20,000 nucleotides of DNA from an uncultured virus (IMG/VR IMGVR_UViG_3300024243_000011) (taxonomy: Duplodnaviria; Heunggongvirae; Uroviricota; Caudoviricetes): the IMG/VR virus record IMGVR_UViG_3300024243_000011, positions 56,332-76,331 of that record. The stretch is one strand, 5' to 3'. Below, piece after piece: positions 2,432 to 20,000 of the stretch (the first letter of the stretch is position 1; every line of letters starts with the position of its first letter). A model generated the notes under the pieces. It was not told where the DNA came from. It worked only from the letters and a program-made list of their open reading frames with translations, and ran no database searches. A program made the position numbers and the translations under genes.

Positions 2432-2734
2432 ATGCCTATGTATGAATATGTTTGTAAAAGTTGTGGTGACTCTTTTGAAGAAATAGTGCCAATGTCTGAA
2501 CGGGATGCCATGCCAGTATGCCCCAAGTGTAACTCTAGCGAAGGAGTCAAGAGGGCTGTTTCAGCAACTAATTTTAGGTTAGCAGGTACTGGCTGGGCTA
2601 GTGATGGCTATTCTTCTACTAGTATGAATCGTAAAACAAAGCCAGGGCAGGCATTGTCACATGCTGTTGATGATGCTAAGGATTCCTTGAGTGAAACTAA
2701 AGAAGAACTTAACAAAAAGAGGTTGGGTAAATAA
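2432..2734 (+). CDS. FmdB-family zinc-ribbon protein
   Basis: MPMYEYVCKSCGDSFE...CPKCNS...SATNFRLAGTGWASDGY is the typical FmdB CxxC..CxxC plus F..G.GW motif. True start is ATG 2432, one base after the previous stop. Confidence 0.85.
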   Translation: MPMYEYVCKSCGDSFEEIVPMSERDAMPVCPKCNSSEGVKRAVSATNFRLAGTGWASDGYSSTSMNRKTKPGQALSHAVDDAKDSLSETKEELNKKRLGK

Positions 2735-4668
2735 TGAGTAATTTTAATTATATTAATATTGGTAGTGTTGATAGTGTTAATGTGCCTGCTGAAACAGACG
2801 TAATATTTGTATCAGATTATTTTGATAATGAACATTCTGGTGGTGCGGAGTTAAGTGACAAGGCGTTGATAGAGAGTTGTACTGGCAATGTTTTTTGTGT
2901 TAAGTCTAGGGATTTAAGTTTGAATTTGCTTAAAAATAACTCATCTAAGTATTGGTTGTTTTCTAATATTGGTGAGATTAATTTAGATTTTTTACCTACT
3001 ATAGCTACAAACCTTAAGTATTCTGTTATTGAATATGATTTTAAGTACTGCAAATATCGTTCGCCAAGAAAACATCAGATGTCTGAAGGGGTTCCATGTG
3101 ATTGTGAAAAAACAGAATGGGGTAAGCTTATTGAGTTTTATTTTGGTAGTGCCGATACAGTGTTTTTTATGTCTGAGAAACAGCGTGATATTTATTTTGG
3201 CAAGCTTCCAGGCTTAGCTAATACTTGTAAATGGAGTGTTTTATCTTCTATTTTTGATGAAAACTTTTTTAAGAAAATTAACCTCCTTAGAAATTCTGAT
3301 GAGATTAAAAATAAAAATGATAAATATTTGATTCTTAACTCACCAAGTTGGATTAAGGGTGTTGACGAGTGTGTTAAATATTGTGAGGAAAACAAACTAG
3401 AATATGAATTGGCTTTTGGCCTTTCTTATAGTGACTTTTTAGATAAGATGGTTGAATCTAAGGGCGTTGTACTTATGCCTATGGATTGGGATACTTGCCC
3501 TAGAGTAGCAATTGAAGCCAAGCTGCTTGATTGTGATGTTAGGATGAACAACAATGTTTTGCATCGTGATGAAGAGTGGTTTGATACTGATGATATAAAT
3601 ACAATTACTGGTTATTTGTATGCATCTAGAAATAATTTTTGGAAGCTTGTGTATAACAATATGAATTATAAGCCAACTATTTCTGGATATACAACCACCT
3701 ATAATTGTGTTAGTGGTGATTTTCCATACATGTCATGCATTAAATCTATGTTGGATTTTTGTGATGAAGTTGTCGTTGTTGATGGTGGCAGTGATGATGG
3801 TACATATAAACAATTGTTAGAGTGGTCTGAAAAAGAGCCTAAGTTGTGTTTATATAAAAATAAAATTAAGTGGGGAACTAAAGAATCCTCCTTGGCCGAT
3901 GGCCAACAAAAAGCGTTGGCTAGATCCTTGTGTACAAAAGACTTTTGTTGGCAAATGGATTCTGACGAGTGTGTTCATGAAAATGATATTGCTAAGATAC
4001 ATGATATTGTCAGGCATTTCCCGAAGGGTGTTGATATTTTAAGCCTTCCGGTTGTAGAATACTGGGGTTCTTTAGATAGTGTTAGGATGGACATACAGCC
4101 TTGGAAATGGAGGTTGTCTAGAAATAAACCTAATATCACTCATGGAGTTCCAAAGCATTTGTTAGAATATGATGATGATGGTAATGTTAAGATTAAATTT
4201 GGTCTTTCTGATGGGTGTGATTATATTGATGTTAATAATTTGACTTCAATGCCCCATGCGTCCTTTTATGATGCTTCTGCTGAACAGATTAGAACTAATA
4301 ATATTGTTGAGTTTGCTAAGTTTTATAATTGGGTAGCGAAAAGTTATCCAACTGTATATCATTTTTCTTGGGCTTCATTGGAAAGAAAGCTTCGAAGTTT
4401 TAAAGGTTTTTGGTCAGTACAGTGGGCTGCAACGTTTGGTTGTGATTTGAAAGATACTGCTGAAAATAATGTGTTCTTTGATAAGCCTTGGACTAATGTT
4501 AATGACGATGATATCAAAGAAACTGCTGAAAAACTTAAGTGCATTGGCCCTAGACTGGCTCATGAAAAAATTGATTATAATTTAAATACTAGTCATATGT
4601 TGACTGACCTTAGTGTTGATCCACCTAAGTATATGCATTCCTGGTTAATTAAAAACAAGCTGATGTAA
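2734..4668 (+). CDS. Bifunctional glycosyltransferase (N-terminal GT-B/GT4-like + C-terminal GT2)
   Basis: N-half has GGAELS and DTCPRVAIEAKLLDC (GT4-like donor motif). C-half from about aa 313 has ISGYTTTYN, EVVVVDGGSDDGT and WQMDSDE (DxD). TAATG overlap with the previous gene. Confidence 0.8.
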   Translation: MSNFNYINIGSVDSVNVPAETDVIFVSDYFDNEHSGGAELSDKALIESCTGNVFCVKSRDLSLNLLKNNSSKYWLFSNIGEINLDFLPTIATNLKYSVIEYDFKYCKYRSPRKHQMSEGVPCDCEKTEWGKLIEFYFGSADTVFFMSEKQRDIYFGKLPGLANTCKWSVLSSIFDENFFKKINLLRNSDEIKNKNDKYLILNSPSWIKGVDECVKYCEENKLEYELAFGLSYSDFLDKMVESKGVVLMPMDWDTCPRVAIEAKLLDCDVRMNNNVLHRDEEWFDTDDINTITGYLYASRNNFWKLVYNNMNYKPTISGYTTTYNCVSGDFPYMSCIKSMLDFCDEVVVVDGGSDDGTYKQLLEWSEKEPKLCLYKNKIKWGTKESSLADGQQKALARSLCTKDFCWQMDSDECVHENDIAKIHDIVRHFPKGVDILSLPVVEYWGSLDSVRMDIQPWKWRLSRNKPNITHGVPKHLLEYDDDGNVKIKFGLSDGCDYIDVNNLTSMPHASFYDASAEQIRTNNIVEFAKFYNWVAKSYPTVYHFSWASLERKLRSFKGFWSVQWAATFGCDLKDTAENNVFFDKPWTNVNDDDIKETAEKLKCIGPRLAHEKIDYNLNTSHMLTDLSVDPPKYMHSWLIKNKLM

Positions 4669-4670
4669 AA

Positions 4671-5414
4671 ATGGATAACTTTAATTTTGTCATAATAACA
4701 CCTTGTTATAATGCATCTTCAAATTTATATAATATATACAATAGTTTATTAGAACAGACTTATGATAAGTGGATCTGGATCATTTCAGATGATTTGTCAA
4801 CTGATGATACATGCGAGGTGGCTAAAAATATTGTTAATGATGATAAATCTTTGGGTAGGGTTGTATTTTTATCTAATGGTAGTGATAAGAAATATGCCCT
4901 TAAAAATATAGTTGATGTTATCAACGGTTCTTGTTTTAGCAATATTGGTTCTGAAGTAATTATTGGTATTATAGATGGCGATGACCAACTGTGTAATAAA
5001 AATGCCTTACAGTTGATTCTTGATGAGTATAGTAATGGTAATGATGTCGTTTGGACAGCGCATATGTGGGATGTTAATAACAATATGAATGTTTCAGGTG
5101 ATATGCCAAATAATATTAACCCATATTTATATCAATGGTGTTCTTCTCATTTTAGAACGTTTAGGAAAAGTATTTTTGATAAGATTTCCCATGATAATTT
5201 TAAGGACATTAATGGTAATTGGTTTAAACGTGGTTATGATCAAGCGTTAATGTTGCCAATATTAAAGCTATCTAAAAAGAGAAAGTATGTTAATGAAGTT
5301 TGTTATCTTTATAATATAAACTCTGTGTCAATTGATCGTAATATGGACACCACATCAGATCAATTAAATGTTGTTAGGTTTGTTAGGGCTAGGGGTTTTA
5401 AAGAAAGTTGTTAG
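4671..5414 (+). CDS. Glycosyltransferase family 2
   Basis: IITPCYNAS, SLLEQTYDKW, SDDLSTDDT, IDGDD motifs. Confidence 0.9.
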   Translation: MDNFNFVIITPCYNASSNLYNIYNSLLEQTYDKWIWIISDDLSTDDTCEVAKNIVNDDKSLGRVVFLSNGSDKKYALKNIVDVINGSCFSNIGSEVIIGIIDGDDQLCNKNALQLILDEYSNGNDVVWTAHMWDVNNNMNVSGDMPNNINPYLYQWCSSHFRTFRKSIFDKISHDNFKDINGNWFKRGYDQALMLPILKLSKKRKYVNEVCYLYNINSVSIDRNMDTTSDQLNVVRFVRARGFKESC

Positions 5415-5469
5415 ATGTTTTGTATTGGTTGTGTTTTTTAAAGTAAGTTTATTTTGGAGGGTAATAATA

Positions 5470-7116
5470 ATGAAAATTGTATCTTTTTGGTCTGGTCATG
5501 ATTGTTCGTTTTGTGTTTTGGAAAATGGAATGCCTAAGCTTCATGTTGAATATGAAAGATATATTAGAGAAAAGGAGCCTAAAGGTGATTCCATAAAGTT
5601 ATTTTTTGATATTTGTGGCGAAGATGAACTAGAGGATGTTACTGATGTTGCTGTTTGTCATCCAATAAAAGATGTTTTCGATTACGCAGAATCTTGGAAA
5701 AAATTATATAAAATTTGTGAAAAAAAGGGAATTAAAGTACATGTGCTTGGCCATCATTTTTCACATGCAGCACATGCGTTTTATTCTAGTAAATATGATG
5801 ACTCATTGATATTGGTTGCCGATGGTGGTGGTGTCGAATTTGAAGATAAAAATGAAAGAATCGAAACTGCAACGTGTACATATGTTGGAAATGGCAAGAG
5901 CATTAAAGCTGTAGATGTGTTTTCTATGCAAAGTATAAATATTGGTGGTTTATGGACAAGGGCCACAAGGTATATTTTTAAGCTACAGTCTGGTTGGCCA
6001 CATGGCCATCAGGCAGGCACTGTAATGGCCATGTCATCGTTTGGTGACTCAAGTAAATATTACAATGATTTTTACAGGATGTTGACTAAAGATATTGCAA
6101 TGGCGTCAATAAAGCCAATGAGTCAGCCTGTTGGTGCGTATACTGGAAATGATCCAATCCATCCTTATTTGGATAAATGGGCTAAGATAGGTGAAAAAAG
6201 TGAGCAAGAACGTTTTGATTTGGCTGCTGGATTACAATCTGCCACTGAAACAGTGTTAAAAGATATGATAGCTAAATTATCTAATGATAACCCAAATATT
6301 AGAAATCTTTGTTTGTGTGGTGGTGTTGCTTTAAATTCTGTAGCAATGGGTAAGATTGTTGATTGGGAAGACAATAATATAGAGGCTGTTTATATACCTC
6401 CTTGTCCTCATGATGGTGGGTTGTCGATTGGTGCTGCACAATATGTTTGGCATAGTTATTGTGGGAATGATAGGATTGAGTGGAGTGACAATGTTTCTCC
6501 ATATCTTGGTGAACTTTATGATGAGGAAGGTGTGAGAGGTTCTATTGAGCAATATAGGGACAGATTAAAAGTTTTGGATTGTGATGATAGATTAGTTATT
6601 GATTTTTTAGATAATCAAAAAATTGTTTCTGTGTTTAGGGGTGGATCTGAATCTGGCCGTAGAGCATTGGGAAATAGAAGTATTCTTGCAGATCCTAGAA
6701 GTGATAAAATGAAAAGTATGATTAATGAAAAAGTTAAGCATCGACAATGGTTTAGACCATTTGCACCATCAATATTGAGAGAACATGTATCTGATTGGTT
6801 TGTTAAGGATGTTGATAGCCCGTACATGTCTTTTGTTGTAAAAATTAGAAAGAATAAGCTAAGCATGATCCCAGCAGTTGCACATTATGATGAAACTGCT
6901 AGGTTACAAACTGTAACAAAGAATGATAATGTTTGGTATTACAATTTTTTATCGAAATGGAATGAGAAAACTAATGTTCCAATATTGTTAAACACAAGCT
7001 TTAATGATCGTGAACCAATTTGTGAAACTCCAGTTCATGCAATTAATTGTTTTCTTAGGACTGATATTGATTATCTTTATTTTGCAGATTTTGGAATTGT
7101 TCTTTCAAAAAAATAA
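5470..7116 (+). CDS. NodU/CmcH/TobZ-family carbamoyltransferase
   Basis: GGAGG RBS before ATG 5470. Motifs GHD, HHFSHAAHAFYSS, DGGG, GGVALN, D.GLSIGAA, E.G.RALGNRSILADPR, KHRQWFRPFAPS, TARLQTV, LNTSFN. Confidence 0.95.
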   Translation: MKIVSFWSGHDCSFCVLENGMPKLHVEYERYIREKEPKGDSIKLFFDICGEDELEDVTDVAVCHPIKDVFDYAESWKKLYKICEKKGIKVHVLGHHFSHAAHAFYSSKYDDSLILVADGGGVEFEDKNERIETATCTYVGNGKSIKAVDVFSMQSINIGGLWTRATRYIFKLQSGWPHGHQAGTVMAMSSFGDSSKYYNDFYRMLTKDIAMASIKPMSQPVGAYTGNDPIHPYLDKWAKIGEKSEQERFDLAAGLQSATETVLKDMIAKLSNDNPNIRNLCLCGGVALNSVAMGKIVDWEDNNIEAVYIPPCPHDGGLSIGAAQYVWHSYCGNDRIEWSDNVSPYLGELYDEEGVRGSIEQYRDRLKVLDCDDRLVIDFLDNQKIVSVFRGGSESGRRALGNRSILADPRSDKMKSMINEKVKHRQWFRPFAPSILREHVSDWFVKDVDSPYMSFVVKIRKNKLSMIPAVAHYDETARLQTVTKNDNVWYYNFLSKWNEKTNVPILLNTSFNDREPICETPVHAINCFLRTDIDYLYFADFGIVLSKK

Positions 7117-7206: not shown

Positions 7207-8232
7207 TTGAATAATGCTAATTATAACTTTGTTGTTTCTGAATGTACTTTTCTTAGATATTTTATGCCTATAATAAATGAGTTAGTTAACAATGATATTG
7301 GTCATAATATAAATATATTTCTTGGTGATAGTAAAAAGTATAATAGCCCACTTTTAAAAGATAATTTAGATTTTATAAAAAAAAGTGTGTCTGATTTAAG
7401 TGTTTTTTATCGTGGCTCTATTAACATAGAGAATATTGAAAGGTTGGGTTTGCCTGAGTTTGCTGGCAATACATATTTTATTGAAGGTGTTGGTATAGAA
7501 TATTCATCTAGGCTTAATAATAATATTGTACTTACTTATATGACTGATTTTGTAAGTCTATTTGACAAGTATGTTGATTTGGCAGATTTTGTTGTTTTTC
7601 CTAATAAGAGTTTTGCTAACCATTACAACAAAGATTCGTGTAAAAATGTTTATATTGGTTCTCCTAAATATTGTGTTGATTTTAACAAACAAACAATACT
7701 GGATAAGTATGGGTTGAATAGTGATAGAAATAATGCATTGATATTGTTACCAAAATTAAGGTATTTTGATGGTAAGATTAACAATGTGTATGGTAAGCTG
7801 CGAGATGCTGGATATAATGTTATAACAAAAACTAGAGGCAAAGACTCAATTAGTGGTGATAAAAGTTTATTTTCTGATTATTATTTTGAGGACTATTCAT
7901 GGTTTCCACATACTAGCATGGAATTAATGTATGTATCTGACTTTGTTGTTAATTTTGACTCTACATCAATTAAAGAAAGCATTATGTTGAGTAAGCCAAT
8001 GGTTAACTTTAAGGTTAAGAAAGGCAGGATGCTACCATTTTTATATGATAATAATATTTTTTGTTTTGATTATGATTATAACATAGATAACATTAATAAT
8101 GGTATTGATAAGTTTTTAGATTATTATAATAACAACATTTCATTTATTGATAGTGAGTTTTATTTGATGAGGGAAAATTATTTATTTAATGTTGAAAACA
8201 GTAATGTTTGCGAAAGGCTAATTCAATTATGA
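7207..8232 (+). CDS. GT-B-fold protein (CDP-glycerol glycerophosphotransferase-like / possible ulosonate transferase)
   Basis: TTG start with GAGGGG upstream. YIGSPKY and LMYVSDFVVNFDSTSIKESIMLSKPMV resemble the C-terminal 'SD.v.t..Ss...Ea..l.kP' signature of GT-B/TagF-like folds. Its stop overlaps the neuA-like start. Confidence 0.5.
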   Translation: MNNANYNFVVSECTFLRYFMPIINELVNNDIGHNINIFLGDSKKYNSPLLKDNLDFIKKSVSDLSVFYRGSINIENIERLGLPEFAGNTYFIEGVGIEYSSRLNNNIVLTYMTDFVSLFDKYVDLADFVVFPNKSFANHYNKDSCKNVYIGSPKYCVDFNKQTILDKYGLNSDRNNALILLPKLRYFDGKINNVYGKLRDAGYNVITKTRGKDSISGDKSLFSDYYFEDYSWFPHTSMELMYVSDFVVNFDSTSIKESIMLSKPMVNFKVKKGRMLPFLYDNNIFCFDYDYNIDNINNGIDKFLDYYNNNISFIDSEFYLMRENYLFNVENSNVCERLIQL

Positions 8233-8846
8233 TTAATAAAGATTTAAATATATTGTATGTAATTCCTGCTAGGGGTGGATCTAAAAGGTTAAAAAATAAA
8301 AACATATATGTTGTAAATGGCAAGCCTTCTATAATCCATACTATAGATGCTGTTTTGGACTCTAAATATGTGTATTGTGGGAGTATGAAAAATAATATTG
8401 TAATTACCACTGAAAGCGATAAAATAAAAATTTGTGTTATAAACAATTGTTGTAATTATGATGACTTTAAAAAAATTAATGTTATTGATAGGCCTGATGA
8501 GTTGGCTAAAGATGATGTTTGGAGGCAGGAAGTATTAAAACATGCAGTTGATAAGTTTGAGAGAGATAATAATGTTAGGTGCGATATAGTGGTATCGCTC
8601 CAGGCCAATTCTCCAGAAATAGAAGGTGTTCATATTGACTTAGCTATTGATAAGCTTATTGAAAATAATTTGTATGAATGTGTTTCTGTTGACAGTGATT
8701 TTATTACCGACGGAGCTATTCGTGTTATGAAAAGAGATTGTGTTTGGCAGGAAGCATTAAGTTGTTATTTAGGGTTTATAGTTACTGATTATATTGATGT
8801 TCATTATGTTGAAGATATTATTTCTATAGAATCTAAATATAATTAA
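8229..8846 (+). CDS. neuA: Acylneuraminate cytidylyltransferase (NeuA-like CMP-nonulosonate synthetase)
   Basis: VIPARGGSKRLKNKN, RPDELAKD, LQANSP, IDVH..ED motifs. ATGA overlap at 8229-8232. Confidence 0.85.
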   Translation: MINKDLNILYVIPARGGSKRLKNKNIYVVNGKPSIIHTIDAVLDSKYVYCGSMKNNIVITTESDKIKICVINNCCNYDDFKKINVIDRPDELAKDDVWRQEVLKHAVDKFERDNNVRCDIVVSLQANSPEIEGVHIDLAIDKLIENNLYECVSVDSDFITDGAIRVMKRDCVWQEALSCYLGFIVTDYIDVHYVEDIISIESKYN

Positions 8847-8890: not shown

Positions 8891-9574
8891 ATGGAAAACT
8901 TTATAAAAAAAATAAGTGTTGTTGTAACTTGCTATAATTATGGTATATGGTTGGAAAGGTGTGTTAGAAGTCTTCTTAATCAGAAGAATTTTTATGATTA
9001 TGAGATTATAATAGTTGATGATTGTAGTAGTGATATTACCCCGTCTGTGTGTGGCAAATTAGTTTCTTTATATAACAAACAAAATAATGTTAAATTTATT
9101 AGACTTGATTCTAATTGTGGCCTTCCGATTGCAGCTAATATTGGCATACAAAATTGTATTGGTCAATATGTTGTTAGGGTTGATGCAGATGATTATGTTG
9201 CATCTGATTTTTTATATTTATTAGATAGGTTTTTACAATTAAATAAAGATAAATACCAAGCTGTTGCATGTGATTATTTTAAGGTTGATTCAAATGAAAA
9301 TAGGATTAGCAGGTTTAGTTGGGAAACTGAACAAATAGCTTGTGGTATACTTTATAATAAAACTTTCCTATATGATGTTGGTTTATATAATAATGATTTT
9401 AAATTTAGAGAAGGTCATGAATTAAATAAGAGGTTTAGTGAAAAGTATAATATTGGTGTTTTGGAAATGCCAATTTATAGATATAGAATACATAATAATA
9501 ATAGGACTATTGACATGTCTGAAGAAGTAAAAAAATATGATCTTAAACTGATGGATGGTGATAAAAATGAGTGA
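8891..9574 (+). CDS. Glycosyltransferase family 2
   Basis: ISVVVTCYNY, EIIIVDDCSSD, N.GLP.A.N.G, RVDADD, Y.YRIH motifs. Confidence 0.92.
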   Translation: MENFIKKISVVVTCYNYGIWLERCVRSLLNQKNFYDYEIIIVDDCSSDITPSVCGKLVSLYNKQNNVKFIRLDSNCGLPIAANIGIQNCIGQYVVRVDADDYVASDFLYLLDRFLQLNKDKYQAVACDYFKVDSNENRISRFSWETEQIACGILYNKTFLYDVGLYNNDFKFREGHELNKRFSEKYNIGVLEMPIYRYRIHNNNRTIDMSEEVKKYDLKLMDGDKNE

Positions 9575-10496
9575 GTTTATTGCGTGGTCAGGTAGGAATG
9601 AGCTTGACTTTAAGGTTAATTTGATTGCTGAAATTGGTATTAATCATAATGGCGATATGTCTTTGGCAAAAGATATGATTTTATCTGCTAAAGATTGTGG
9701 TGCTGATTTTGTAAAGTTCCAGTCTTGGCAAGAAAAAAAATTAAAGCATGGTCCATGGGATGACGGAGAAACATTTTGTTCATTTGATAATAAAAGGGAT
9801 TTTTATAAGAGTGTCGAATTGTCTGATGATCAGCATGTAGAATTAGTTAATTTTTGTAATAACAATGGTGTTAAGTTTTTAACTACATGCTTTGATGTTG
9901 GTAGAATTGACTTTTTAAATAGTTTGGGTATGGAATATATTAAAATAGCTAGTTCAGATGCATTTAATTTTGATTTGTTGGAGGCTGTGTCTAAGAAATT
10001 TAAGAAGATTATTATTTCAGTAGGAATGTTAAATAAAGATGAAATTATTAAATTAAATGATTTTTTATTTTACAATATTGGCAGCTTCAATAAGGATATA
10101 GTTATTTTACATTGTGTCTCTAATTATCCTGCTAAAAGATGTGACTTTAATGTAAATAAATTTATGTATATCAAGAACAATATTGTAAAAAATAATACTA
10201 ACAACTATTCAGGTTTTGGTCTTAGTGATCACACTGACTCTATAGATACTAGTGTGTTTGCTGTCTCTAATGGTGCCAACTGGATTGAGAAGCACTTTAC
10301 TTTAGATAAGAGTTCTGTTGGACCAGATAATGTATTTAGCTTAGAGCCAGTTCAACTTAAACAGCTAAGAACATATTGTGATTATTATACTGAGATTATG
10401 TCTAAATATGTAGGTAATGTTATTGATGGTGATTATTTTGAGGTTAATGATGCTGAGGTTGAGTTGAGCAAGGTAGTAAGGGGGAGGTTTGAATAA
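9567..10496 (+). CDS. neuB: NeuB-family nonulosonic acid synthase, lacking the C-terminal SAF/antifreeze-like domain
   Basis: IAEIGINHNGD, GADFVKFQ, KIASSD, LHCVSNYP, GLSDHT, IEKHFTLD, GPDN.FSL. The protein ends shortly after the TIM barrel. Confidence 0.92.
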   Translation: MSEFIAWSGRNELDFKVNLIAEIGINHNGDMSLAKDMILSAKDCGADFVKFQSWQEKKLKHGPWDDGETFCSFDNKRDFYKSVELSDDQHVELVNFCNNNGVKFLTTCFDVGRIDFLNSLGMEYIKIASSDAFNFDLLEAVSKKFKKIIISVGMLNKDEIIKLNDFLFYNIGSFNKDIVILHCVSNYPAKRCDFNVNKFMYIKNNIVKNNTNNYSGFGLSDHTDSIDTSVFAVSNGANWIEKHFTLDKSSVGPDNVFSLEPVQLKQLRTYCDYYTEIMSKYVGNVIDGDYFEVNDAEVELSKVVRGRFE

Positions 10497-13004: not shown

Positions 13005-14053
13005 TGGGTGACATTGATAAAAAATTGGCTGATTTTTTTAAAGACAAGGTTGTGTTAGTTACTGGCGGTGCAGGTACTATTGGCTCTGGCATTTGTAAGA
13101 AAATATTGGAATGTTTTGATGTTGAGCAACTTAGGGTGTTTGACAACAGTGAATATTTGCTATATAAATTTATTAATAGTGTCGAGTCTGATGAAAGAGT
13201 CAGGGTTTTGATTGGCGATGTTCGTGACGGTGATAGGCTAGATAGGGCAGTTAGTGGTTGTGACATTGTTATTCATGCTGCTGCTTTGAAGCATGTATTT
13301 TTTTGTGAGTTTAATCCAGATGAGGCTTATAAAACTAATGTTGGCGGCACCGAAAATGTTATTGATTCTTGTAGGAAGTTTGGTGTAGAAAGGGCTTTGT
13401 TGATATCAACTGACAAAGCGGTAAACCCTGTTAATGTTATGGGTACAACAAAATTATTGGCAGAAAAGTTGTTTCTAAATGCTATGGAAGTGGGTCGTAA
13501 AAATAAAAAAACTAAGTTTTCTGTGGTTAGGTTTGGTAATGTTTTTGGCTCTAATGGTTCATTTGTCGAGACTTTTTATAACAATATGTCTAATGATGAA
13601 GAAATATTAGTTACAAATTTAAGTGCTTCTAGGTATATGATGTCAATTGATGACGCTATCAATCTAGTCCTTAGATCGTTTGTGTTGGGTGAGCATGATT
13701 TATATGTTTTGAAAATGGACAAGTGTATTTTAAGGCATGTGTTACATGCATTGTGTTTACATTTTAATATAAATTTTGATGATCTTGTTATAAAAAAAAT
13801 TGGTTTGTTGCCTGGGGAAAAGCTGTGTGAAGAGTTGTTGACTGGACATGAAAAGGCTATGGCTGCTATATATGACGATTTTGTTATTGTTGATTATGAT
13901 AGGATACATTCTCATTTTATATCTGGAAACAATAATGGTTGTAACAATAGTTTAAGTGTTGATAAGGATAATTGTTTTGATGATTTTGGTGATATGTCTA
14001 TTGATGACATTGGTGTGCTGTTAGATAGATGGATTGAAGATAAAAGTAACTAA
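13001..14053 (+). CDS. Soluble UDP-GlcNAc 4,6-dehydratase (Polysacc_synt_2; CapD/PglF-type)
   Basis: VTGGAGTIGS, HAAALKHV..CE.NP.EA.KTNV.GT.NV, ISTDKAVNPVNVMGTTK (MxxxK catalytic variant), VRFGNVFGSNGS, PGEKL.EEL. Confidence 0.9.
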   Translation: MMGDIDKKLADFFKDKVVLVTGGAGTIGSGICKKILECFDVEQLRVFDNSEYLLYKFINSVESDERVRVLIGDVRDGDRLDRAVSGCDIVIHAAALKHVFFCEFNPDEAYKTNVGGTENVIDSCRKFGVERALLISTDKAVNPVNVMGTTKLLAEKLFLNAMEVGRKNKKTKFSVVRFGNVFGSNGSFVETFYNNMSNDEEILVTNLSASRYMMSIDDAINLVLRSFVLGEHDLYVLKMDKCILRHVLHALCLHFNINFDDLVIKKIGLLPGEKLCEELLTGHEKAMAAIYDDFVIVDYDRIHSHFISGNNNGCNNSLSVDKDNCFDDFGDMSIDDIGVLLDRWIEDKSN

Positions 14054-14072
14054 TGATTGGGGATTAAAAAAC

Positions 14073-15149
14073 ATGTTTAATGATTATAAGTTTGTTGTTG
14101 CTGGGTGTTGTGGTTCTATGGGTGCTAGAAGAATAGGTGTTATGATTAATAATTTCAATATTGATCCGTCTAATATTTATGGATATGATGTTAGTAATAA
14201 CAGTAAAGATAGAAGTTTTGATGGTGTTAATTATTTTGTTGGTACTGGGAACTTAGATGATGTTGAGAATTTGTTGAGGAATGAAGATAAGGTTGTTTGT
14301 TTTATATGTACTCCACCTAATAAACATATGGGATATTATAGATTGTTTAGCGAATATAATTGTCATATTTTTTGCGAAGCATCAGTATGCCCGTCAGACA
14401 GGTTTGCGTTATTAGACATATATGAAACAAGTAAAAATAATAATACAGTTGTATATCCATCTTCTACTTTGAAGTTTAAGGATTCTATTAGATATATAAA
14501 GGGTATTATTGATGATAATGTTATTGGCAAGCCACTTAGTTATATTTATAGAGTTTCACAGAATCTAAAACAATGGCACCCAGAACAAGATATTAATAGT
14601 TATTATGTGTCAAATGTTGACACTAGTGGTAGTAGAGAAATGATTCCATTTGAATTGTCATGGTTAGTCGATATCTTTGGGCCAATAGATTTTGACTCTA
14701 TGTGTTCGTTAGTTAAGTCAAGATCGGTTATAGGTAAAAACACTGGTATAAATGATTGTTATTCAGTTATTTTTGAACATATGCTTGATGTGTGTAATAA
14801 CAACTATGTTGGTGCTAATTTTTCTGTTGATGTTTATAGCCAAAAGCCGTATCGTAGGCTTTATTTATCTTGTGAGGGTGGTAATATAGAATGGGATTGG
14901 ATTGACAATAATGTTTCTGTATATATTAACAGTAATGATAATGAATTTTTACCTGAAAAAATTGTATACAAAGAGGAGAGCGTCAGTGTTTTAAATGGGT
15001 ATTCTGATTTTTCTACTCAAAAAATGTATGTTGATGAGGTTGGTCATTTTTTTGATTGTGTGTTGGGCAAAGATGTTCTTTGTAATACTTTATCTGATGA
15101 CAATTATGTGTTAACATGTTTAGATGTTATAGAGAGGAGAACAAAGTGA
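14073..15149 (+). CDS. Gfo/Idh/MocA-family oxidoreductase
   Basis: G.GSMG.RR nucleotide-binding start, FICTPPNKH, HIFCEA, L.QWHP, MY.DE..HF motifs. ATG 14073 follows GGGGA. Confidence 0.8.
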   Translation: MFNDYKFVVAGCCGSMGARRIGVMINNFNIDPSNIYGYDVSNNSKDRSFDGVNYFVGTGNLDDVENLLRNEDKVVCFICTPPNKHMGYYRLFSEYNCHIFCEASVCPSDRFALLDIYETSKNNNTVVYPSSTLKFKDSIRYIKGIIDDNVIGKPLSYIYRVSQNLKQWHPEQDINSYYVSNVDTSGSREMIPFELSWLVDIFGPIDFDSMCSLVKSRSVIGKNTGINDCYSVIFEHMLDVCNNNYVGANFSVDVYSQKPYRRLYLSCEGGNIEWDWIDNNVSVYINSNDNEFLPEKIVYKEESVSVLNGYSDFSTQKMYVDEVGHFFDCVLGKDVLCNTLSDDNYVLTCLDVIERRTK

Positions 15150-15150: not shown

Positions 15151-16062
15151 ATGAAGAGAAGTAATGTTGTTGATGGTAAAAAGTGGATTGACAGATTTAA
15201 TATTAACAAAGATGGTTATATAAAGTATTTTTTTAAAAAGTTGTTTGGCTTATATAATAATAAAAATATAGCTATATTTGTATCTGCTAGGGATAAGTCA
15301 ACTAGGCTAAAAAATAAAGAGTTTAAGAGGTTGACGTGTCATTGTGGGGACACAGTTATTGATTATATTTTAAATAGGTTGTTGTGTTGTTTTTGTTCCA
15401 GCACTCCAATTTCTAGCATTCCAATTGTTTTATGTACATCATATTATAAGGATGATTATAAGTTTTTTGATATTGATACTGTTAATGATAAAGCAAGGTT
15501 TAAAAATAAAAATAATTGTGGTATAGCTGTTTATGCAGGCCATCCTGATGATAAGCTAGATAGGTATTATTCTTGTATGGAATATTTTGGGTTAGACGGT
15601 GCTATCATAATTGATGGTGATAATTTATTTACATCGTTTGGTGCAATTAAATATACATATGATAAGTTACAAGAAGGCTTTGAATATGTTTACTCTAACT
15701 ACAACGAGGTTCCCGATGGCTTATATTGTTATGGCATATCTAAGAAATCTCTTGAGGCAGTAATGGTTAATAAGAATAGCTCAGATACAGAAGTTTGGGG
15801 CCATTTATTTAAGGGTAAGTTTTATGAGAATGAATATATTTTTCCATATAAGTTTGATGATAGGTTAAGGTTAACTTTAGATTACGAAGAGGATTTTGAC
15901 TTTTTTAACATTATTTTAGATGCTTGTGTTAGTGTATATAATATTGATGTTCCACAAATACTAAATATACTAACAGATAATGAAGATTTATATAGTATTA
16001 ATTGTGGCAAGATAGATGAGTATAAAGAAAGGTTAAATGAAATTAAAGAAAGAACAAACTGA
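15151..16062 (+). CDS. SpsF/KdsB-like cytidylyltransferase
   Basis: IFVSARDKSTRLKNK, G.PDDKLDRY, IDGDN, RLTLDYEEDFDF are typical SpsF-like motifs. Confidence 0.82.
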   Translation: MKRSNVVDGKKWIDRFNINKDGYIKYFFKKLFGLYNNKNIAIFVSARDKSTRLKNKEFKRLTCHCGDTVIDYILNRLLCCFCSSTPISSIPIVLCTSYYKDDYKFFDIDTVNDKARFKNKNNCGIAVYAGHPDDKLDRYYSCMEYFGLDGAIIIDGDNLFTSFGAIKYTYDKLQEGFEYVYSNYNEVPDGLYCYGISKKSLEAVMVNKNSSDTEVWGHLFKGKFYENEYIFPYKFDDRLRLTLDYEEDFDFFNIILDACVSVYNIDVPQILNILTDNEDLYSINCGKIDEYKERLNEIKERTN

Positions 16063-17020
16063 TAAAAACATTGTATTGTTTTATAGCAGTCGTGCTGAAT
16101 ATTCTATATTAGAGCCTATTGTTAAACTGTATGGAAATTTTATAAATGTTGTAAATATAAATAATTGGTTTGATGGTGGTTTTAATTTAGAAGAGAATTA
16201 TTCGAAACTTGGCGATGTGTATAATGCAGCTTATTCTTTTATAGTTAATAATAATGTTGATGTCGTTGTTTTATTGGGCGACAGAAAGGAAATGTTTATG
16301 ACAGCATCAGCAGCGTTTATGGCTGGAGTCGAGTTGGTTCATTTGGCAGCAGGGGACTTGTCTGAAAAGATTACTACCTATGATGATTTTGTTAGACATA
16401 TTATAACATTAATGAGCAGCAAACAAGTTTGTTTCTCAGATAGTTCGCTTAGTGTTGTCAATGATATGTTTTCAGTGGTGAATAAAGAGTGTTGTGCTAA
16501 AGCTTTTAATAATCCATCATTTTCATTAATAGATTTAGATGTTATAAAAAATAAAGTTTTTGACTGTAAAGATATTTATGATAATATTGTAGATAATAAT
16601 GAGAAATATATTTTATTTTTAGTACATCCAGAAAATGATGTTAACAATACTAAGAAAATAGCTGGTAGCATAGAAGAGCATTGTAATTTTTATGTTAATA
16701 AAGGTTATAGTTTGGTTTTTATATTTGGTAATAAAGATCTTAATTATGAACTTATTTATAATAAAATATGTAACATTAAGCTTGAGTTTACAAATATGGT
16801 TTTTGTTTATAATAATTTAGAGAAGGATAGTTTTTTGAACTTAGTTGTTAATTGTGGCAAGTTTATTTCTAATAGTTCTTGTTTGTATTATGAAATACCA
16901 AAGTTGATTGATATGGATAATGTTATATTTTTAGGGGATAGAAATTATAAAAGAAATTGTGGTAATGTTAAATTTAATGATAAAAAAAATGTAAATGATA
17001 TATTTAATTTTATTTGGTAG
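16037..17020 (+). CDS. neuC: NeuC-like hydrolysing UDP-GlcNAc (derivative) 2-epimerase, divergent
   Basis: SSRAEYSIL, VLLGDRKE, HLAAGD.S...DDFVRHIIT, HPE, SNSS...E.P, GDRN..R correspond to the NeuC motifs TRAEYG, LGDRFE, HGGE, DE..RHAITK, GNSSS, G.RQ.GR. Confidence 0.8.
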   Translation: MKLKKEQTDKNIVLFYSSRAEYSILEPIVKLYGNFINVVNINNWFDGGFNLEENYSKLGDVYNAAYSFIVNNNVDVVVLLGDRKEMFMTASAAFMAGVELVHLAAGDLSEKITTYDDFVRHIITLMSSKQVCFSDSSLSVVNDMFSVVNKECCAKAFNNPSFSLIDLDVIKNKVFDCKDIYDNIVDNNEKYILFLVHPENDVNNTKKIAGSIEEHCNFYVNKGYSLVFIFGNKDLNYELIYNKICNIKLEFTNMVFVYNNLEKDSFLNLVVNCGKFISNSSCLYYEIPKLIDMDNVIFLGDRNYKRNCGNVKFNDKKNVNDIFNFIW

Positions 17021-17031
17021 GAGAACTTAAT

Positions 17032-18285
17032 ATGGCATCTTCGTTAAGGAATGTTAATAGGAAGAAAGGTAAGGGTAGTGTTGTTGTAAAAAAAGAGCGG
17101 GCTAGTACCGTTACTGTTGTTAAACCTAATGAAGTTGACATTATCAATAAAAATAAGCTAAAAAAGAATTTAAATAAAAGTAAAAGTGTTAGGCCCGAAG
17201 TTGCAGAAGCCAACATTAATAATTTTTTTGAATATAAATATAATAGTGATAGTGACTTTATTTTAAAATATAGTTATGACAAGTTTAAGTTTAAATTTAA
17301 TTCTGGTAATAGTATGAATAAACCATGGCATATTACTAATATGCCAGGAGGTGTTAGTGACTTTGTTGGTAGGTTTAAGAGTGATAGTTCTTCATTTTTA
17401 GCAAAAGATAGCGGTGCGTGCGACAAATATTTAATAAACTTTAAAGATTCTTACACTAAGTTTTCTTCTAATTATTTAAAGTATGATGTTAGTAATAACT
17501 TTAGTAATGATGTATGTGTGATAGTTGGTGGTGGAAAGACAACCGAATATTTTGATTTTTCTGTTTTAGAATCTCTCAGGAAGATTTATGGCAATGTCCA
17601 CTTATGGTCTTGTAATGGTGGGTCTACTTTTTGTGAGTCCGATTGTGTGTGGTGTTCGTCAGACAAGCGAATACTAGATTTTCAATATAGATCTTTTATA
17701 GATAACAAACCTCAAATTGCCACTATTTTACATTATAGCCATGGGTCAGATGAAGCTATTTTTGATGATAAAATGTTTTTTCATATTAAATATTCTTATG
17801 ATTTACCTAAAAATTATGATGTTTTTAAAAATGATGTTGATAATTTTTCTTTGGCTAGATCTGGTGATGACTTAGGTATGTTTGCTATAAAATCTGCTTT
17901 ATCTTTGGGGTTTTCTAAAGTTTTTTTAGTTGGGTTTGATGGCAGAATTGATTGTGGTTCTTCTAAAGTTAAAGATATTTTAGATAATAATTGGGCTGGC
18001 GATCCGTCATTGATTAGTGCGGAGTATAATAAGATAATAAATTCTAATGATAGTGTTTTTAAAAAGCATATAAAGAAAAGAAACAATCAAAATATTATGT
18101 TATTTAATATGGTAAAAAAATATTGTTGTGAGAATGATATAGAGCTTAAGTGGTTAACTCCGTCAATATATGTTGAGAGGGATAAGGGTCGTTATTTTAT
18201 GAGTTATAAAGATTTGTCTAGAAGGTATATTGATTATGTTAATAGTGTTAAATTTAGTATTGGTGGAGGGCGTGGTGTCAAATAA
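17032..18285 (+). CDS. Maf/DUF115/CstII-like putative nonulosonate transferase with Lys-rich N-terminus (copy 1)
   Basis: AGGAG RBS before ATG 17032. CVIVGGGKT..FDFS.L...WSCN and GMFAIKSALSLGFSKVFLVGFDG resemble the 'iiGnGPSl...d...l...cN' and 'a..lA..LGy.eIyL.G.D' motifs of DUF115/Maf and GT42 proteins. Confidence 0.6.
   Translation: MASSLRNVNRKKGKGSVVVKKERASTVTVVKPNEVDIINKNKLKKNLNKSKSVRPEVAEANINNFFEYKYNSDSDFILKYSYDKFKFKFNSGNSMNKPWHITNMPGGVSDFVGRFKSDSSSFLAKDSGACDKYLINFKDSYTKFSSNYLKYDVSNNFSNDVCVIVGGGKTTEYFDFSVLESLRKIYGNVHLWSCNGGSTFCESDCVWCSSDKRILDFQYRSFIDNKPQIATILHYSHGSDEAIFDDKMFFHIKYSYDLPKNYDVFKNDVDNFSLARSGDDLGMFAIKSALSLGFSKVFLVGFDGRIDCGSSKVKDILDNNWAGDPSLISAEYNKIINSNDSVFKKHIKKRNNQNIMLFNMVKKYCCENDIELKWLTPSIYVERDKGRYFMSYKDLSRRYIDYVNSVKFSIGGGRGVK
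17230..17613 (+). repeat. Direct repeat copy A (pairs with 19614-20000)
   Basis: Manual alignment: about 25 substitutions plus one 3-bp indel over 384 bp. 17495-17613 is identical to 19882-20000. Confidence 0.95.
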
Positions 18286-19324
18286 TAAGGTTAAAATAAT
18301 AGCAGAAGTTGCCTGGGCGCATGATGGTGATCTCGATAAGGCAAAAATGTTAGTTAAAAATGCATCGTTGGCGGCTGTTGATATAATTAATTTTCATATT
18401 ACAGACATTCCTTCGTATATAACTAAAGACTATGGTAACAAAGATGGTTTATCTGTTTCTAAAAGAGGTGTAAGTGATATATATAAATTTTTACTAGATA
18501 ACAACATATGTGTTGAAGATATAAATAAATTATTATATTTGTCTAAAAAGTTTAATTTATTAACATCTGTTATGATTAATGACAGTGAATCTTTTTCAAG
18601 ACTAGATTGTTCGTTAGTTGATTATATGTGCATAGCTCCAGCTATTGTAGATGAAAAGTCATTAATTGATAATATACATTTTGCTTTTAATAAGTTTGAT
18701 AATATAAGAAAAGTTTTTGTTAGGTGTGGCGCATCTAATTTTAATGAAATAAAATGTATTGTAAATAAGTTTGGTGGTAGTAATGTTGTTTTATTGCATG
18801 GTGTTCAAAATTTCCCATCTGATGTCAATAGCTTAAATTTGAATTGTTTAGACACTTTAAGCAATAGTTTTGTTGATTGTGATGTTGGCTTGGCTGATCA
18901 CTTAGATGCTGACAGTAGTTTAAGTTTAATTTTGCCATTAATGGCTATCTCTAAGGGATGTAATTATATAGAAAAACATATTACATATTCTAGATTTGAA
19001 AGGGGAGAAGATTTTGAGTCTGCTTTAGAATTAAATGAGCTTTATAAGTTTGTTAATTATGTGAGACAAGCCGAAAATGCTTTGGGCAGTGGAGACATTA
19101 ACAGTTTTTCAGTGAGTGAGTCAAAATATAATTCTGTTGTTAGAAAAAGGTTGGTTGCTAAAAATAAAGTATGTTCTGGTTGTGTTATATCTGCTGATGA
19201 TGTTTGTTTTAAGAGGGCAAATGCAGGCTTTTTTATTGGTGATATTGATAAGGTTGTTGGAAAAATTGCAGTTAAAGATGTTTATATTGATATGTCATTT
19301 GATGAAGAAAGTGTTGGCGAATAA
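18275..19324 (+). CDS. Second, divergent NeuB/SpsE-family protein with C-terminal SAF domain
   Basis: GGAGG at 18265-18269 favours GTG 18272/18275. Motifs IIAEVAWAHDGD, LLHGVQNFP, GLADH, IEKHIT, DFESAL, and SAF-like RKRLVAKNKVCSGCVISADDVCFKR. Confidence 0.85.
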   Translation: MSNNKVKIIAEVAWAHDGDLDKAKMLVKNASLAAVDIINFHITDIPSYITKDYGNKDGLSVSKRGVSDIYKFLLDNNICVEDINKLLYLSKKFNLLTSVMINDSESFSRLDCSLVDYMCIAPAIVDEKSLIDNIHFAFNKFDNIRKVFVRCGASNFNEIKCIVNKFGGSNVVLLHGVQNFPSDVNSLNLNCLDTLSNSFVDCDVGLADHLDADSSLSLILPLMAISKGCNYIEKHITYSRFERGEDFESALELNELYKFVNYVRQAENALGSGDINSFSVSESKYNSVVRKRLVAKNKVCSGCVISADDVCFKRANAGFFIGDIDKVVGKIAVKDVYIDMSFDEESVGE

Positions 19325-19376
19325 TAAAAATATTTTTAATGTATTGTGAGTTTAATTTATAATGGGAGGTTTTTTT

Positions 19377-20000
19377 ATGGTATCTTCATTAAAGAACATT
19401 AGTAGGAAGAAGGAGAGGAAAGAAAAAAAAGAACAGGTTAGCGTTACGGTTGTGGCCAAGCCTAATGAAGTTAGTATTATCAATAAAAGCAAGTTAAGAA
19501 AGAATTTAAGTGTTAATAAAAGTGGAGATATCAATAAAAATAAATTAAAGAAGAATTTAAATATTAATAAAGATAAAGATGTTAAGTTAGAAGCTAACAT
19601 TAATGATCTTGTTGAATATAAATATAATAGTGACAGTGACTTTATTTTAAAATATAGTTATGATAAATTTAAGTTTAAATTTAATTCTGGCAACAACATG
19701 AATAAACCATGGCACATTACTAATATGTCTGGAGGAGGTGCTAGTGACTTTGTTGGTAGGTTTAAGAGTGATAGTTCTGCATTTTTAGCAAAAAATAATA
19801 GTATGTGTGACAAAGATTTGATAAACTTTAAAGATTCTTATATTAAATTTTCTTCTAATTATTTAAAGTATGATGTTAGTGATAACTTTAGTAATGATGT
19901 ATGTGTGATAGTTGGTGGTGGAAAGACAACCGAATATTTTGATTTTTCTGTTTTAGAATCTCTCAGGAAGATTTATGGCAATGTCCACTTATGGTCTTGT
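19377..20000 (+). CDS. Paralog (copy 2) of the 17032-18285 gene; 3'-truncated by the window end
   Basis: Not in the ORF track because it has no stop in the window. GGAGGT RBS at 19365-19370; 208 open codons reading MVSSLKNISRKK...YKYNSDSDFILKYSYDKFKFKFNSG...DVCVIVGGGKTTEYFDFSVLESLRKIYGNVHLWSC. Confidence 0.9.
   Translation, partial: MVSSLKNISRKKERKEKKEQVSVTVVAKPNEVSIINKSKLRKNLSVNKSGDINKNKLKKNLNINKDKDVKLEANINDLVEYKYNSDSDFILKYSYDKFKFKFNSGNNMNKPWHITNMSGGGASDFVGRFKSDSSAFLAKNNSMCDKDLINFKDSYIKFSSNYLKYDVSDNFSNDVCVIVGGGKTTEYFDFSVLESLRKIYGNVHLWSC
19479..19580 (+). repeat. Imperfect in-frame tandem repeat, 2 x 51 bp (17 aa)
   Basis: INKSKLRKNLSVNKSGD / INKNKLKKNLNINKDKD; both units start ATCAATAAAA (19479 and 19530). 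Confidence 0.85.
19614..20000 (+). repeat. Direct repeat copy B (pairs with 17230-17613; runs off the window)
   Basis: Same alignment as copy A; the last 119 bp are identical. Confidence 0.95.

Follow-up and report, generated by a model that had tools for sequence, protein, structure and literature searches.

Nonulosonic acids are surface sugars of bacteria, archaea and animals. To our knowledge, phage particles have so far been shown to carry only simpler glycans, in mycobacteriophages, whose virion glycans are made with a few glycosyltransferases and methyltransferases from host nucleotide sugars. The combination of a dehydratase, an aminotransferase, an acetyltransferase, an epimerase, the synthase NeuB and a cytidylyltransferase is the known route to legionaminic acid. 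Among described loci, the Maf flagellin O-glycosylation islands (Campylobacter, Aeromonas; the Magnetospirillum Maf structure is PDB 5MU5) are soluble and cytoplasmic, lack an exporter, and combine dehydratase, aminotransferase, NeuB and cytidine monophosphate (CMP)-sugar synthetase genes with transferases of the MptE/DUF115 fold. In the sialylation of Campylobacter jejuni lipo-oligosaccharide (LOS) by NeuBCA with Cst-I and Cst-II, a dedicated synthase and synthetase supply a CMP-activated nine-carbon sugar. PMC12619734 describes mycobacteriophage capsid and tail-tube subunits glycosylated by phage-encoded soluble glycosyltransferases, and PMC5420450 describes the nonulosonate transferases of Tannerella forsythia as TagB-like GT-B enzymes, naming BFO_1060.

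Here, a gene cluster for nonulosonic acid synthesis and transfer is described from an uncultured marine Caudoviricetes virus. It occupies most of a window of 20,000 nucleotides (the whole stretch of DNA that was analyzed, positions 56,332 to 76,331 of IMG/VR record IMGVR_UViG_3300024243_000011) and runs on beyond it. An earlier note on the window alone had proposed that positions 2734 to 20000 encode such a system in a large phage, with no export machinery. The extended cluster (at least 26.7 kb, 25 genes) reads as a phage-encoded, entirely soluble glycan factory; taken as a whole, and with the phage's own virion proteins as its target, this statement is given an even chance.

A co-oriented glycan gene cluster

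Between 2734 and 20000, the open reading frame (ORF) listing shows a nearly gap-free series of plus-strand genes with spacings of −56 to +90 nucleotides. This agrees with the roughly 17 kb of co-oriented, often translationally coupled genes of the earlier note, all of whose gene classes were found where it had placed them. The dehydratase, the hydrolysing epimerase and two NeuB synthases were recovered with Pfam and NCBIfam profiles, as was the aminotransferase, of which there are two. Of the two CMP-activating enzymes in the note, the one at 8208-8846 is firm, and the other (15151-16062) is only weak. The count of at least six transferase genes holds in the sense of candidates, namely the genes that start at 2734, 4671, 7207, 8891, 17014 and 19362. 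The cluster genes in the window are as follows, with lengths in amino acids (aa).

2734..4668, +, two-domain glycosyltransferase, 644 aa (PF00535, E 5.6e-08, residues 335-440)
4671..5414, +, GT2 glycosyltransferase (PF00535, E 1e-14)
5368..7116, +, O-carbamoyltransferase, NodU/Nol type (PF16861, Carbam_trans_C, E 7.7e-61; phrog_1601, E 2.4e-107, aligned from residue 36)
7207..8232, +, TagF/TagB-like GT-B protein by predicted fold, no Pfam or NCBIfam family, likely start 7264
8208..8846, +, CMP-nonulosonate synthetase (PF02348, CTP_transf_3, E 8.5e-14; PseF TIGR03584, E 6.7e-14, below cut-off)
8891..9574, +, GT2 glycosyltransferase (PF00535, E 6.7e-28)
9555..10496, +, NeuB synthase no. 1 (PF03102, E 3.3e-59; NeuB_NnaB 213.8 versus PseI 166.6 bits, both below cut-off)
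10489..11694, +, DegT sugar 4-aminotransferase, LegC-like (PF01041, E 1.4e-75; LegC family 230 versus PseC 194 bits)
11712..13004, +, class-III aminotransferase, glutamate-1-semialdehyde aminomutase-like (PF00202, E 9.2e-51; PRK06209, E 2.7e-104, below cut-off)
13001..14053, +, UDP (uridine diphosphate)-GlcNAc 4,6-dehydratase, PseB/CapE/PglF family (PF02719, Polysacc_synt_2, E 3.5e-81)
14034..15149, +, putative GFO/IDH/MocA-type oxidoreductase, weak (PF01408, E 1.6e-04, below gathering score)
15151..16062, +, second, divergent cytidylyltransferase-like protein (PF02348, E 0.009; cyanophage CTP_transf_3 ORF, E 1.3e-13)
16037..17020, +, NeuC-like hydrolysing UDP-sugar 2-epimerase (PF02350, Epimerase_2, E 1.6e-20; NeuC_NnaA, E 2.7e-32, below cut-off)
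17014..18285, +, Maf/MptE/GT42-fold protein, 423 aa, candidate CMP-nonulosonate transferase (PF01973, E 1.2e-03)
18230..19324, +, NeuB synthase no. 2 (PF03102, E 1.8e-25; NeuB_NnaB 144.5 versus PseI 99 bits)
19362..20000, +, second Maf/GT42-like gene, 5' part, open at the contig end (100% identical to protein P0002 over 208 aa; no family match)

Promoter-like sites occur at the level of chance (132 found, 123 expected). Terminator-like sites number 14 against 5 expected, yet they do not mark the operon borders.

Predicted sugar pathway

Both NeuB synthases exceed the Pfam gathering score of 22.1 bits (200.7 for no. 1 and 90.3 for no. 2), and they are only distantly related to each other (E 1e-10). 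The cytidylyltransferase at 8208-8846 reaches 52.3 bits against the CTP_transf_3 cut-off of 22.6. The second such protein, at 15151-16062, has a sub-threshold 16.2 bits, its other support being the cyanophage ORF that it matches, itself a clear CTP_transf_3 protein. When compared against PDB, the dehydratase matched 6bwc (197 bits), PseB 2gn4 (187 bits) and PglF 5bju (168 bits), and the DegT aminotransferase matched 7b0m (173 bits), perosamine synthetase (141 bits), PglE (109 bits) and PseC (89 bits).

Together with an acetyltransferase encoded downstream of the window, the dehydratase, the LegC-like aminotransferase and the NeuC-like epimerase would turn a UDP-N-acetylhexosamine into a 2,4-diacetamido-hexose, which NeuB would condense with phosphoenolpyruvate; the cytidylyltransferase would then activate the product to a CMP-sugar. 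The product indicated by homology would be a CMP-activated 5,7-diamino-tetradeoxy nonulosonic acid of the legionaminic/pseudaminic (Leg/Pse) family. All four enzyme types of the 5,7-diamino branch (dehydratase, 4-aminotransferase, N-acetyltransferase and 2-epimerase) are present, none of them at the equivalog cut-off of its NCBIfam model. Because the equivalog models all score below cut-off, the assignment made here goes as far as a 5,7-diamino nonulosonic acid of the Leg/Pse family. A pseudaminic-type route could in principle be kept open by the slight preference of the dehydratase for the inverting type and by the GT-B protein, which is possibly PseG-like; the PseG family returned no match for this ORF (7207-8232).

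The second NeuB and the second cytidylyltransferase suggest a second activated sugar, of nine carbons or related. Further enzymes for the transfer of carbamoyl, amino, radical-SAM methyl and methyl groups point to heavy tailoring. The carbamoyltransferase, the class-III aminotransferase (11712-13004), whose role is probably tailoring, and, downstream of the window, a B12-dependent radical-SAM enzyme, a methyltransferase and a candidate SGNH-like protein would carry it out.

A rare Maf/GT42-like transferase family

The protein encoded at 17014-18285 and its paralogue at the window end belong to a very rare family. For the former, a full HMMER search of 1.84 billion representatives gave 8 hits, and a word-indexed search gave 3. 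The alignment of the eight sequences has the invariant positions GGG 172-174, D210, G284, G288, A291, L305, G307 and D309. Five of the eight members match PF01973 (MptE-like, DUF115/Maf) weakly, at best with E 1.2e-04. When the family profile was searched against PDB, nine sialyltransferase sequences were matched with E values of 1.1e-03 to 1.3e-02 (Cst-II variants, Cst-I and one Pasteurella multocida enzyme), and Maf 5mu5 with E 1.3. The alignment pairs the invariant GGG with GNGPS of Cst-II and LvGFDG with LsGID; it covers Cst-II residues 2-160, and the catalytic histidine region lies outside it.

Structure comparison led to the same superfamily. Foldseek with the predicted model returned the MptE kinase (E 3.7e-05), ST3Gal and Cst-II. 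Among 1000 chains, VIA-align placed Maf 5mu5 at the top (Z 10.7 over 182 aa, root mean square deviation 4.0, with a low-confidence model), followed by MptE (10.4), SteA (10.2), Cst-I and Cst-II (8.4-9.1) and GT29 enzymes (about 7.3). Residues 1-138 of the protein are lysine-rich and basic, and the model does not resolve them with confidence. The ORF is read here as belonging to the MptE/Maf/sialyltransferase fold superfamily, and in its gene context it would most simply be a CMP-nonulosonate transferase. It was not filed as a Maf protein, because it falls below the Pfam threshold and Maf-like flanking domains were not seen. Inspected by eye, the C-terminal half of the longer paralogue (724-729 aa) resembles a degenerate repeat of the domain.

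The TagF-like protein and other glycosyltransferases

The ORF at 7207-8232 has 127 homologues of about 320 aa, in which the motifs GSPKY, KTRGK, WFPH and DST..KE are invariant. Its model is confident, with a mean predicted local distance difference test score (pLDDT) of 90.9. By fold, its best match is TagF (Foldseek E 5e-08; VIA Z 18.7, aligned over 288 aa), and UDP-GlcNAc 2-epimerases, NeuC among them, tie with it (Z 17-18.6); MurG/GT28-like matches were found in the Atlas (TM score 0.69-0.73), and a BFVD fold search returned only generic viral GT-B proteins. Judged by its fold, the protein is a candidate transferase with a CMP or CDP (cytidine diphosphate) donor, perhaps TagB-like and of the type implicated in Tannerella nonulosonate transfer, or it may be a nucleotide-sugar hydrolase or epimerase.

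In the 644-aa glycosyltransferase, the N-terminal 320 aa are GT-B-like and match Atlas clusters with TM scores of 0.83-0.93. For both this domain and the TagF-like protein, the nearest Atlas clusters are 96-100% viral. The GT2 enzyme at 8891-9574 matches the PHROG "GtrB-like O-antigen conversion".

Absence of export machinery

Proteins from 85.8 kb of sequence were searched with Pfam (23 from the window, 108 from upstream of it and 10 from downstream). No exporter, Wzy, phosphoglycosyltransferase or flagellin family was matched among these 141 proteins. The 25 cluster ORFs contain no multi-pass membrane protein and no membrane anchor or amphipathic membrane protein in a crude Kyte-Doolittle hydropathy scan, which is not a dedicated transmembrane predictor. 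The sole strongly hydrophobic stretch is the N-terminus of the carbamoyltransferase ORF (5368-7116); because it precedes the start of the family match, the called start of this ORF is probably too early. The earlier note had reported no wzx, wzy, wzm, wzt or kps gene, no initiating phosphoglycosyltransferase and no obvious transmembrane protein in the window; the Pfam search extends the absence of export and initiating genes to the 85.8 kb, and the hydropathy scan extends that of multi-pass membrane proteins to the 25 cluster ORFs.

Continuation past the contig end

The 20 kb of the window form the 3' end of one contig of 76,331 bp. The continuation was located in metagenome contigs with an exact 44-base pattern from the last window ORF. 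Two contigs, of 119,163 and 145,623 bp, match, and both are 100% identical to the 76,331-bp contig over 10.5 kb; the 145-kb contig ends no more than 20 bases from the window end, and the 119-kb contig passes through it. Position 20000, where the earlier note had closed the cluster, is therefore an assembly break within a gene, and the cluster runs on for at least 9.5 kb. The last window ORF corresponds to the first 208 residues of P0002 (724 aa), with 100% identity, and its protein is 70% identical to that of ORF 17014-18285. At the DNA level, 17131-18263 and the downstream copy (L004:8824-9955, L004 being the downstream locus) are about 90% identical over 1.1 kb. Two of the three assemblies break at this Maf-like repeat, and the contig end is read as an assembly break because the two copies are so similar. 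The cluster spans at least 26.7 kb and at least 25 ORFs, at which point the downstream locus stops. Its downstream part (L004, minus strand) contains the following genes.

L004:7924-10113, complete Maf-like paralogue, 729 aa, the full-length form of the gene at 19362 (724-729 aa)
L004, 363-aa and 378-aa ORFs, no matches
L004, B12-binding radical-SAM enzyme
L004, 249-aa ORF, ends in a DDGYH motif
L004, 119-aa ORF, shortened duplicate of the neighbouring 249-aa ORF, C-terminal half (63% identity)
L004, hexapeptide acetyltransferase, 121 aa (NeuD/PglB/VioB family, E 2.7e-17)
L004, 377-aa ORF, no matches
L004, 270-aa ORF, faint rhamnosyltransferase match
L004, methyltransferase

The 249-aa and 119-aa ORFs form a duplicate pair within L004:3152-4334 (minus strand), and the DDGYH end of the longer one may resemble that of SGNH hydrolases. 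The 119-aa and 121-aa ORFs had been considered as a single frameshifted NeuD gene; this was rejected, the former being a copy of the 249-aa C-terminal half and the latter a separate acetyltransferase. Searches of PDB with phmmer gave nothing useful for the window ORFs at 7207, 15151 and 17014 or for the downstream 363-, 378-, 377- and 249-aa ORFs.

Evidence for a large phage

The 76,331-bp contig has 130 called ORFs, 114 of them on one strand, a coding density of 96% and many small orphan genes. The G+C content of the window is 26-36%. Its GC skew stays positive along the whole length and reaches unusually high values (+0.26 to +0.48). Outside the window, Pfam was run on 108 upstream ORFs of the contig and PHROGs on 101. 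The upstream 56 kb encodes a DnaE-type polymerase (phrog_405, E 2.4e-243) that is less than 30% identical to any GenBank phage protein by tblastn, nucleotide-metabolism proteins (ThyX, dUTPase, NUDIX and dCMP deaminase), a MoxR-type ATPase with a VWA/DUF2201 partner, an SLT transglycosylase and a ClpP-like head maturation protease (phrog_94, E 1.4e-32). The virus record, the phage-type gene content of these 56 kb and the one-strand bias all bear out the phage origin that the earlier note had proposed.

That the phage is large, as the note had also supposed, follows from longer assemblies: the same DNA is present on the 119,163- and 145,623-bp contigs, which overlap the window from opposite sides, and a contig of 216,854 bp encodes a protein identical to that of ORF 7264-8232. 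These lengths fit a jumbo phage (>200 kb) with a genome of roughly 217 kb.

No ribosomal protein family was matched among the 141 proteins, and no tRNA gene was found in the 86 kb read; in 99 kb, no Rfam family was matched, rRNA included. Genes for rRNA, ribosomal proteins, exporters or flagellin, any of which the earlier note would have taken as the mark of an ordinary bacterial island, are absent from the 85.8 kb. The note's description of small genes ahead of the cluster holds as well, since Pfam and NCBIfam place three of them directly upstream; the stop of the last one overlaps the start of the first transferase gene (2734), so that the two are translationally coupled.

1908..2102, +, Hc1 histone-H1-like protein, chlamydial-type (PF07432, E 9.4e-19)
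2134..2430, +, small sigma-70 region-4-like protein, possible regulator (PF04545, E 9.7e-06)
2396..2734, +, FmdB-type zinc ribbon (TIGR02605, E 1.5e-17; phrog_1076)

Several other features of the contig are recorded here in their own right. A 361-aa ORF that follows the head-protease gene was considered as the major capsid protein and matched nothing in Pfam, PHROGs, INPHARED or IMG/VR; as it has no support in that role, adjacency of the cluster to a head module is not claimed. The GenBank phages also gave no tblastn match for this ORF, for the TagF-like ORF or for the 644-aa glycosyltransferase. A CCA-adding tRNA nucleotidyltransferase is encoded at contig positions 38766-39983 (L003:766-1983; phrog_2244, E 1.8e-97), despite the lack of tRNA genes in 86 kb. 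Ahead of the window too, a short homologue of PurZ-type adenylosuccinate synthetase (361 aa; phrog_1211, E 5.5e-66) adjoins a gene of the IMPDH/GMP-reductase family (contig 40393-42576, L003:2393-4576). Going by the PurZ-type gene, the phage DNA may contain 2-aminoadenine (Z).

The acceptor of the glycan

In the proposed mechanism, the two paralogous Maf/Cst-II-fold enzymes, and perhaps the TagF-like GT-B protein too, would transfer the activated sugars, and three GT2-type enzymes would build the rest of the glycan. Because no lipid-carrier initiating enzyme, flippase, polymerase or ABC exporter was found in the 85.8 kb, and because the fold is one that bacteria use for the cytoplasmic glycosylation of flagellin, the acceptor would be met inside the infected cell. 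There, the phage's own virion proteins would be O-glycosylated before or during assembly, which would give the particle an acidic glycan coat. Virion proteins are the target favored here, at a little less than an even chance, because of the flagellin-type transferase fold, the phage-specific accessory glycosyltransferases and the mycobacteriophage precedent in PMC12619734. The full proposal is more tentative: a widespread marine jumbo phage would cover its particles in a complex acidic glycan bearing one or two carbamoylated, methylated Leg/Pse-type sugars, which would be attached to capsid or tail proteins by a hitherto unknown branch of the Maf/sialyltransferase superfamily that is restricted to phages.

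Several observations weigh against the proposed mechanism. In 76 kb, no capsid, terminase or tail protein was matched, the head maturation protease being the only virion-type gene, and no confirmed capsid or tail gene adjoins the cluster. The 85.8 kb read are only part of the roughly 217-kb genome. Among the pathway enzymes, every equivalog-level NCBIfam score is below its cut-off, and the clues to stereochemistry are split between a dehydratase that scores slightly higher against the PseB type and an aminotransferase that is LegC-like. The candidate transferase at 17014-18285 scores 19.0 bits against PF01973, for which the gathering score is 34.6, and its AlphaFold model is poor (mean pLDDT 53.6, about 47-89 in the core, residues 140-390). 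In the fold comparison, Maf is tied with the MptE kinase and SteA, neither of which is a glycosyltransferase, and the best sequence-profile matches, Cst-II and Cst-I, sialylate lipo-oligosaccharide and not protein.

This last point leads to host-surface remodelling, in which the phage CMP-nonulosonates and transferases would act, at the cytoplasmic face, on lipid-linked intermediates of the host (LOS or lipopolysaccharide core, capsule or teichoic-acid-like polymers) or on its flagellin, pilin or S-layer, with export left to the host; receptors would be altered, and superinfection or grazing blocked. This is the main rival, considered unlikely but supported by several observations. In addition to the Cst-II and Cst-I matches, ORF 7207-8232 is TagF-like (Z 18.7), and TagF and TagB act on lipid-linked polymers; the GtrB-like match of the GT2 enzyme at 8891-9574 is to an O-antigen conversion family; and an exporter of its own would be unnecessary to the phage if the host supplies one. 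Tannerella nonulosonate transferases are TagB-like GT-B enzymes in PMC5420450, and phage genes that modify the nonulosonic acids of Acinetobacter capsules are described in PMC12053666 and PMC6586298. Against remodelling, the hydropathy scan showed no membrane anchor or amphipathic membrane protein in the 25 ORFs. Surface conversion is classically a trait of temperate phages, and neither Pfam nor PHROGs detected an integrase or lysogeny gene in 85.8 kb. The relatives of the accessory transferases are, furthermore, almost purely viral, which speaks for an acceptor specific to the phage and not for a variety of host glycans.

Hypermodification of DNA, with a nonulosonate-bearing glycan on modified bases that blocks host nucleases, is highly improbable. 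According to PMC12619734, some phage glycosyltransferases hypermodify DNA with a variety of glycans. The Maf-like N-termini are lysine-rich and lack confident structure in the model, and the contig is rich in nucleotide-metabolism genes. Those genes (ThyX, dCMP deaminase, dUTPase) nevertheless point to ordinary thymidine, no ThyA-type dCMP/dUMP hydroxymethylase was found in 76 kb, and the PurZ-type gene suggests that a different DNA modification is already used. We know of no nonulosonic acid on DNA, and the acceptors of Maf and GT42 enzymes are proteins or sugars. Least probable of all, and close to negligible, is a bacterial surface-glycan island on a misclassified cellular or chimeric contig. 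Every pathway enzyme has cellular homologues, and Hc1, sigma-4 and FmdB are also bacterial; set against this are the virus record, the phage-type genes, coding density and strand bias, the recurrence of the same junctions in three independent assemblies, the lack of rRNA, tRNA and ribosomal-protein genes in the sequence read, and the presence of a related sub-cluster in other viral contigs.

If virion glycosylation is correct, this would be a viral "sialic-acid-like" coat made wholly from viral genes. More than 12% of the roughly 217-kb genome is spent on nonulosonate synthesis and transfer without an export route, which implies an intracellular acceptor. The coat would likely serve to stabilize the virion, to make it sticky and to help it evade grazers, antibodies or receptor decoys; the alternative would be a far-reaching rewrite of the host surface. 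The rare Maf/GT42-like family, the 127-member TagF-like family and the tailoring enzymes are also new enzymes for glyco-engineering.

Distribution of viral NeuB loci

A NeuB profile matched at least 429 IMG/VR contigs, and phage NeuB clusters as a general kind are frequent in viral metagenome data. What is new here is, first, the scale, with two synthases, two synthetases, six or more transferases and extensive tailoring; second, the probable jumbo-phage setting; and third, the rare Maf/GT42-like family. Single-protein scans of IMG/VR with the 361-aa ORF, NeuB no. 1 and the Maf-like ORF gave no close relatives. Among GenBank phages, 3 of 50,697 records match NeuB no. 1, and two have comparable soluble clusters. 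One is a 484-kb uncultured phage (LR756508.1:307721-338485, L006) with NeuB, a cytidylyltransferase, GT10, GT25, two sulfotransferases and a GDP-mannose dehydratase; the other is Kyanoviridae virus AG-345-L05 (MH319754.1:72485-103183, L007) with NeuB, DegT, a cytidylyltransferase, GT11, GT2 and GT25. In the former record, which is unannotated, a 20-kb stretch holds six ORFs that belong to the eukaryote-type GT29 sialyltransferase family. In AG-345-L05, the NeuB cluster lies about 2 kb from psbA and a heme oxygenase gene.

Homologues of the cluster genes were counted in 82 viral NeuB loci.

Cytidylyltransferase (8208-8846), 53 of 82 loci
Dehydratase, 24 of 82 loci
GT2 (8891-9574), 20 of 82 loci
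DegT aminotransferase, 16 of 82 loci
644-aa glycosyltransferase, 5 of 82 loci

The Maf-like family, the TagF-like ORF and the GFO-like ORF were each found in none of the 82. In the five closest loci (L026, L027, L031, L032 and L034), the 644-aa glycosyltransferase and a GT2 gene come first, followed after an interval by a cytidylyltransferase, NeuB, a cytidylyltransferase and GT2; FmdB follows in three of them (L031, L032 and L034). L026 and L031, the two whose flanks were scanned, are bordered by exonuclease, late-sigma-like and endolysin-like genes. A very close homologue of the carbamoyltransferase (723.7 bits) is encoded at L029:2712-4352, on an unrelated-looking 104-kb IMG/VR contig. Because only 4 of the 25 cluster proteins have homologues there, a recent exchange of this gene among marine viruses is suggested.

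Twenty-four metagenome runs, seawater or marine, contain window DNA, and in 15 of them half or more of the sampled words were present; three of the 24 may be the source, and sampling campaigns may overlap. No RNA run is among these 24. Because the DNA occurs in 24 marine runs and NeuB in at least 429 IMG/VR contigs, the phenomenon may be ecologically common. A literature search that left supplements aside yielded no description of a phage-encoded nonulosonic acid pathway with its own transferase, and the words sialic, nonulosonic, pseudaminic and legionaminic are absent from the text of a preprint on huge-phage envelope genes (10.64898/2026.10.24.761521).

Comparison with known systems

The viral loci of LR756508.1, AG-345-L05, L026 and L031 also combine NeuB and a cytidylyltransferase with many soluble glycosyltransferases and methyltransferases. 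They differ from the present cluster in their candidate transferases, with GT29-type homologues (six ORFs in LR756508.1, one in L026) in place of the Maf-like proteins, and L026 is without the dehydratase and aminotransferase branch that is present in the window. Cell-surface polysaccharide loci for O-antigen and capsule have a phosphoglycosyltransferase with Wzx/Wzy, ABC or Kps export, which are absent from the 85.8 kb of the phage that were read. As far as is known, mycobacteriophages with glycosylated virions lack the features that set this cluster apart, a whole nonulosonic acid pathway and a different transferase fold; here, glycosylation of the virion is a proposed function. The resemblance to Tannerella is a faint match of ORF 7207-8232 to the NCBIfam BFO_1060 family (E 0.007, 15.5 bits against a cut-off of 200). 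The HP and D/E-D/E-G motifs given in PMC5420450 were not found by eye in the phage TagF-like family, which has WFPH instead.

The Maf islands share with the cluster its soluble, cytoplasmic character and its core gene set. The cluster differs from them in its phage setting, in its many extra glycosyltransferases and in the great rarity of its transferase family. No flagellin family was matched among the 141 phage proteins, and the phage Maf-like protein has a basic N-terminus (1-138); its model, which gives no confident structure outside the core, shows none of the Maf-like flanking domains. As in C. jejuni LOS sialylation, a dedicated synthase and synthetase serve a CMP-activated nine-carbon sugar. 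Cst enzymes, however, add N-acetylneuraminic acid (Neu5Ac) to a lipid-anchored oligosaccharide, whereas the phage sugar would be of the 5,7-diamino type and not Neu5Ac, because its pathway includes a 4,6-dehydratase and an aminotransferase. All six enzyme types of the legionaminic acid pathway that proceeds via a UDP-2,4-diamino sugar in Legionella and Campylobacter are present in the phage cluster, with the differences that the phage acetyltransferase has only 121 aa and the dehydratase leans marginally towards the PseB type. To this pathway, the phage adds a second synthase and synthetase and tailoring by carbamoyl transfer, a B12-radical-SAM enzyme and methylation.

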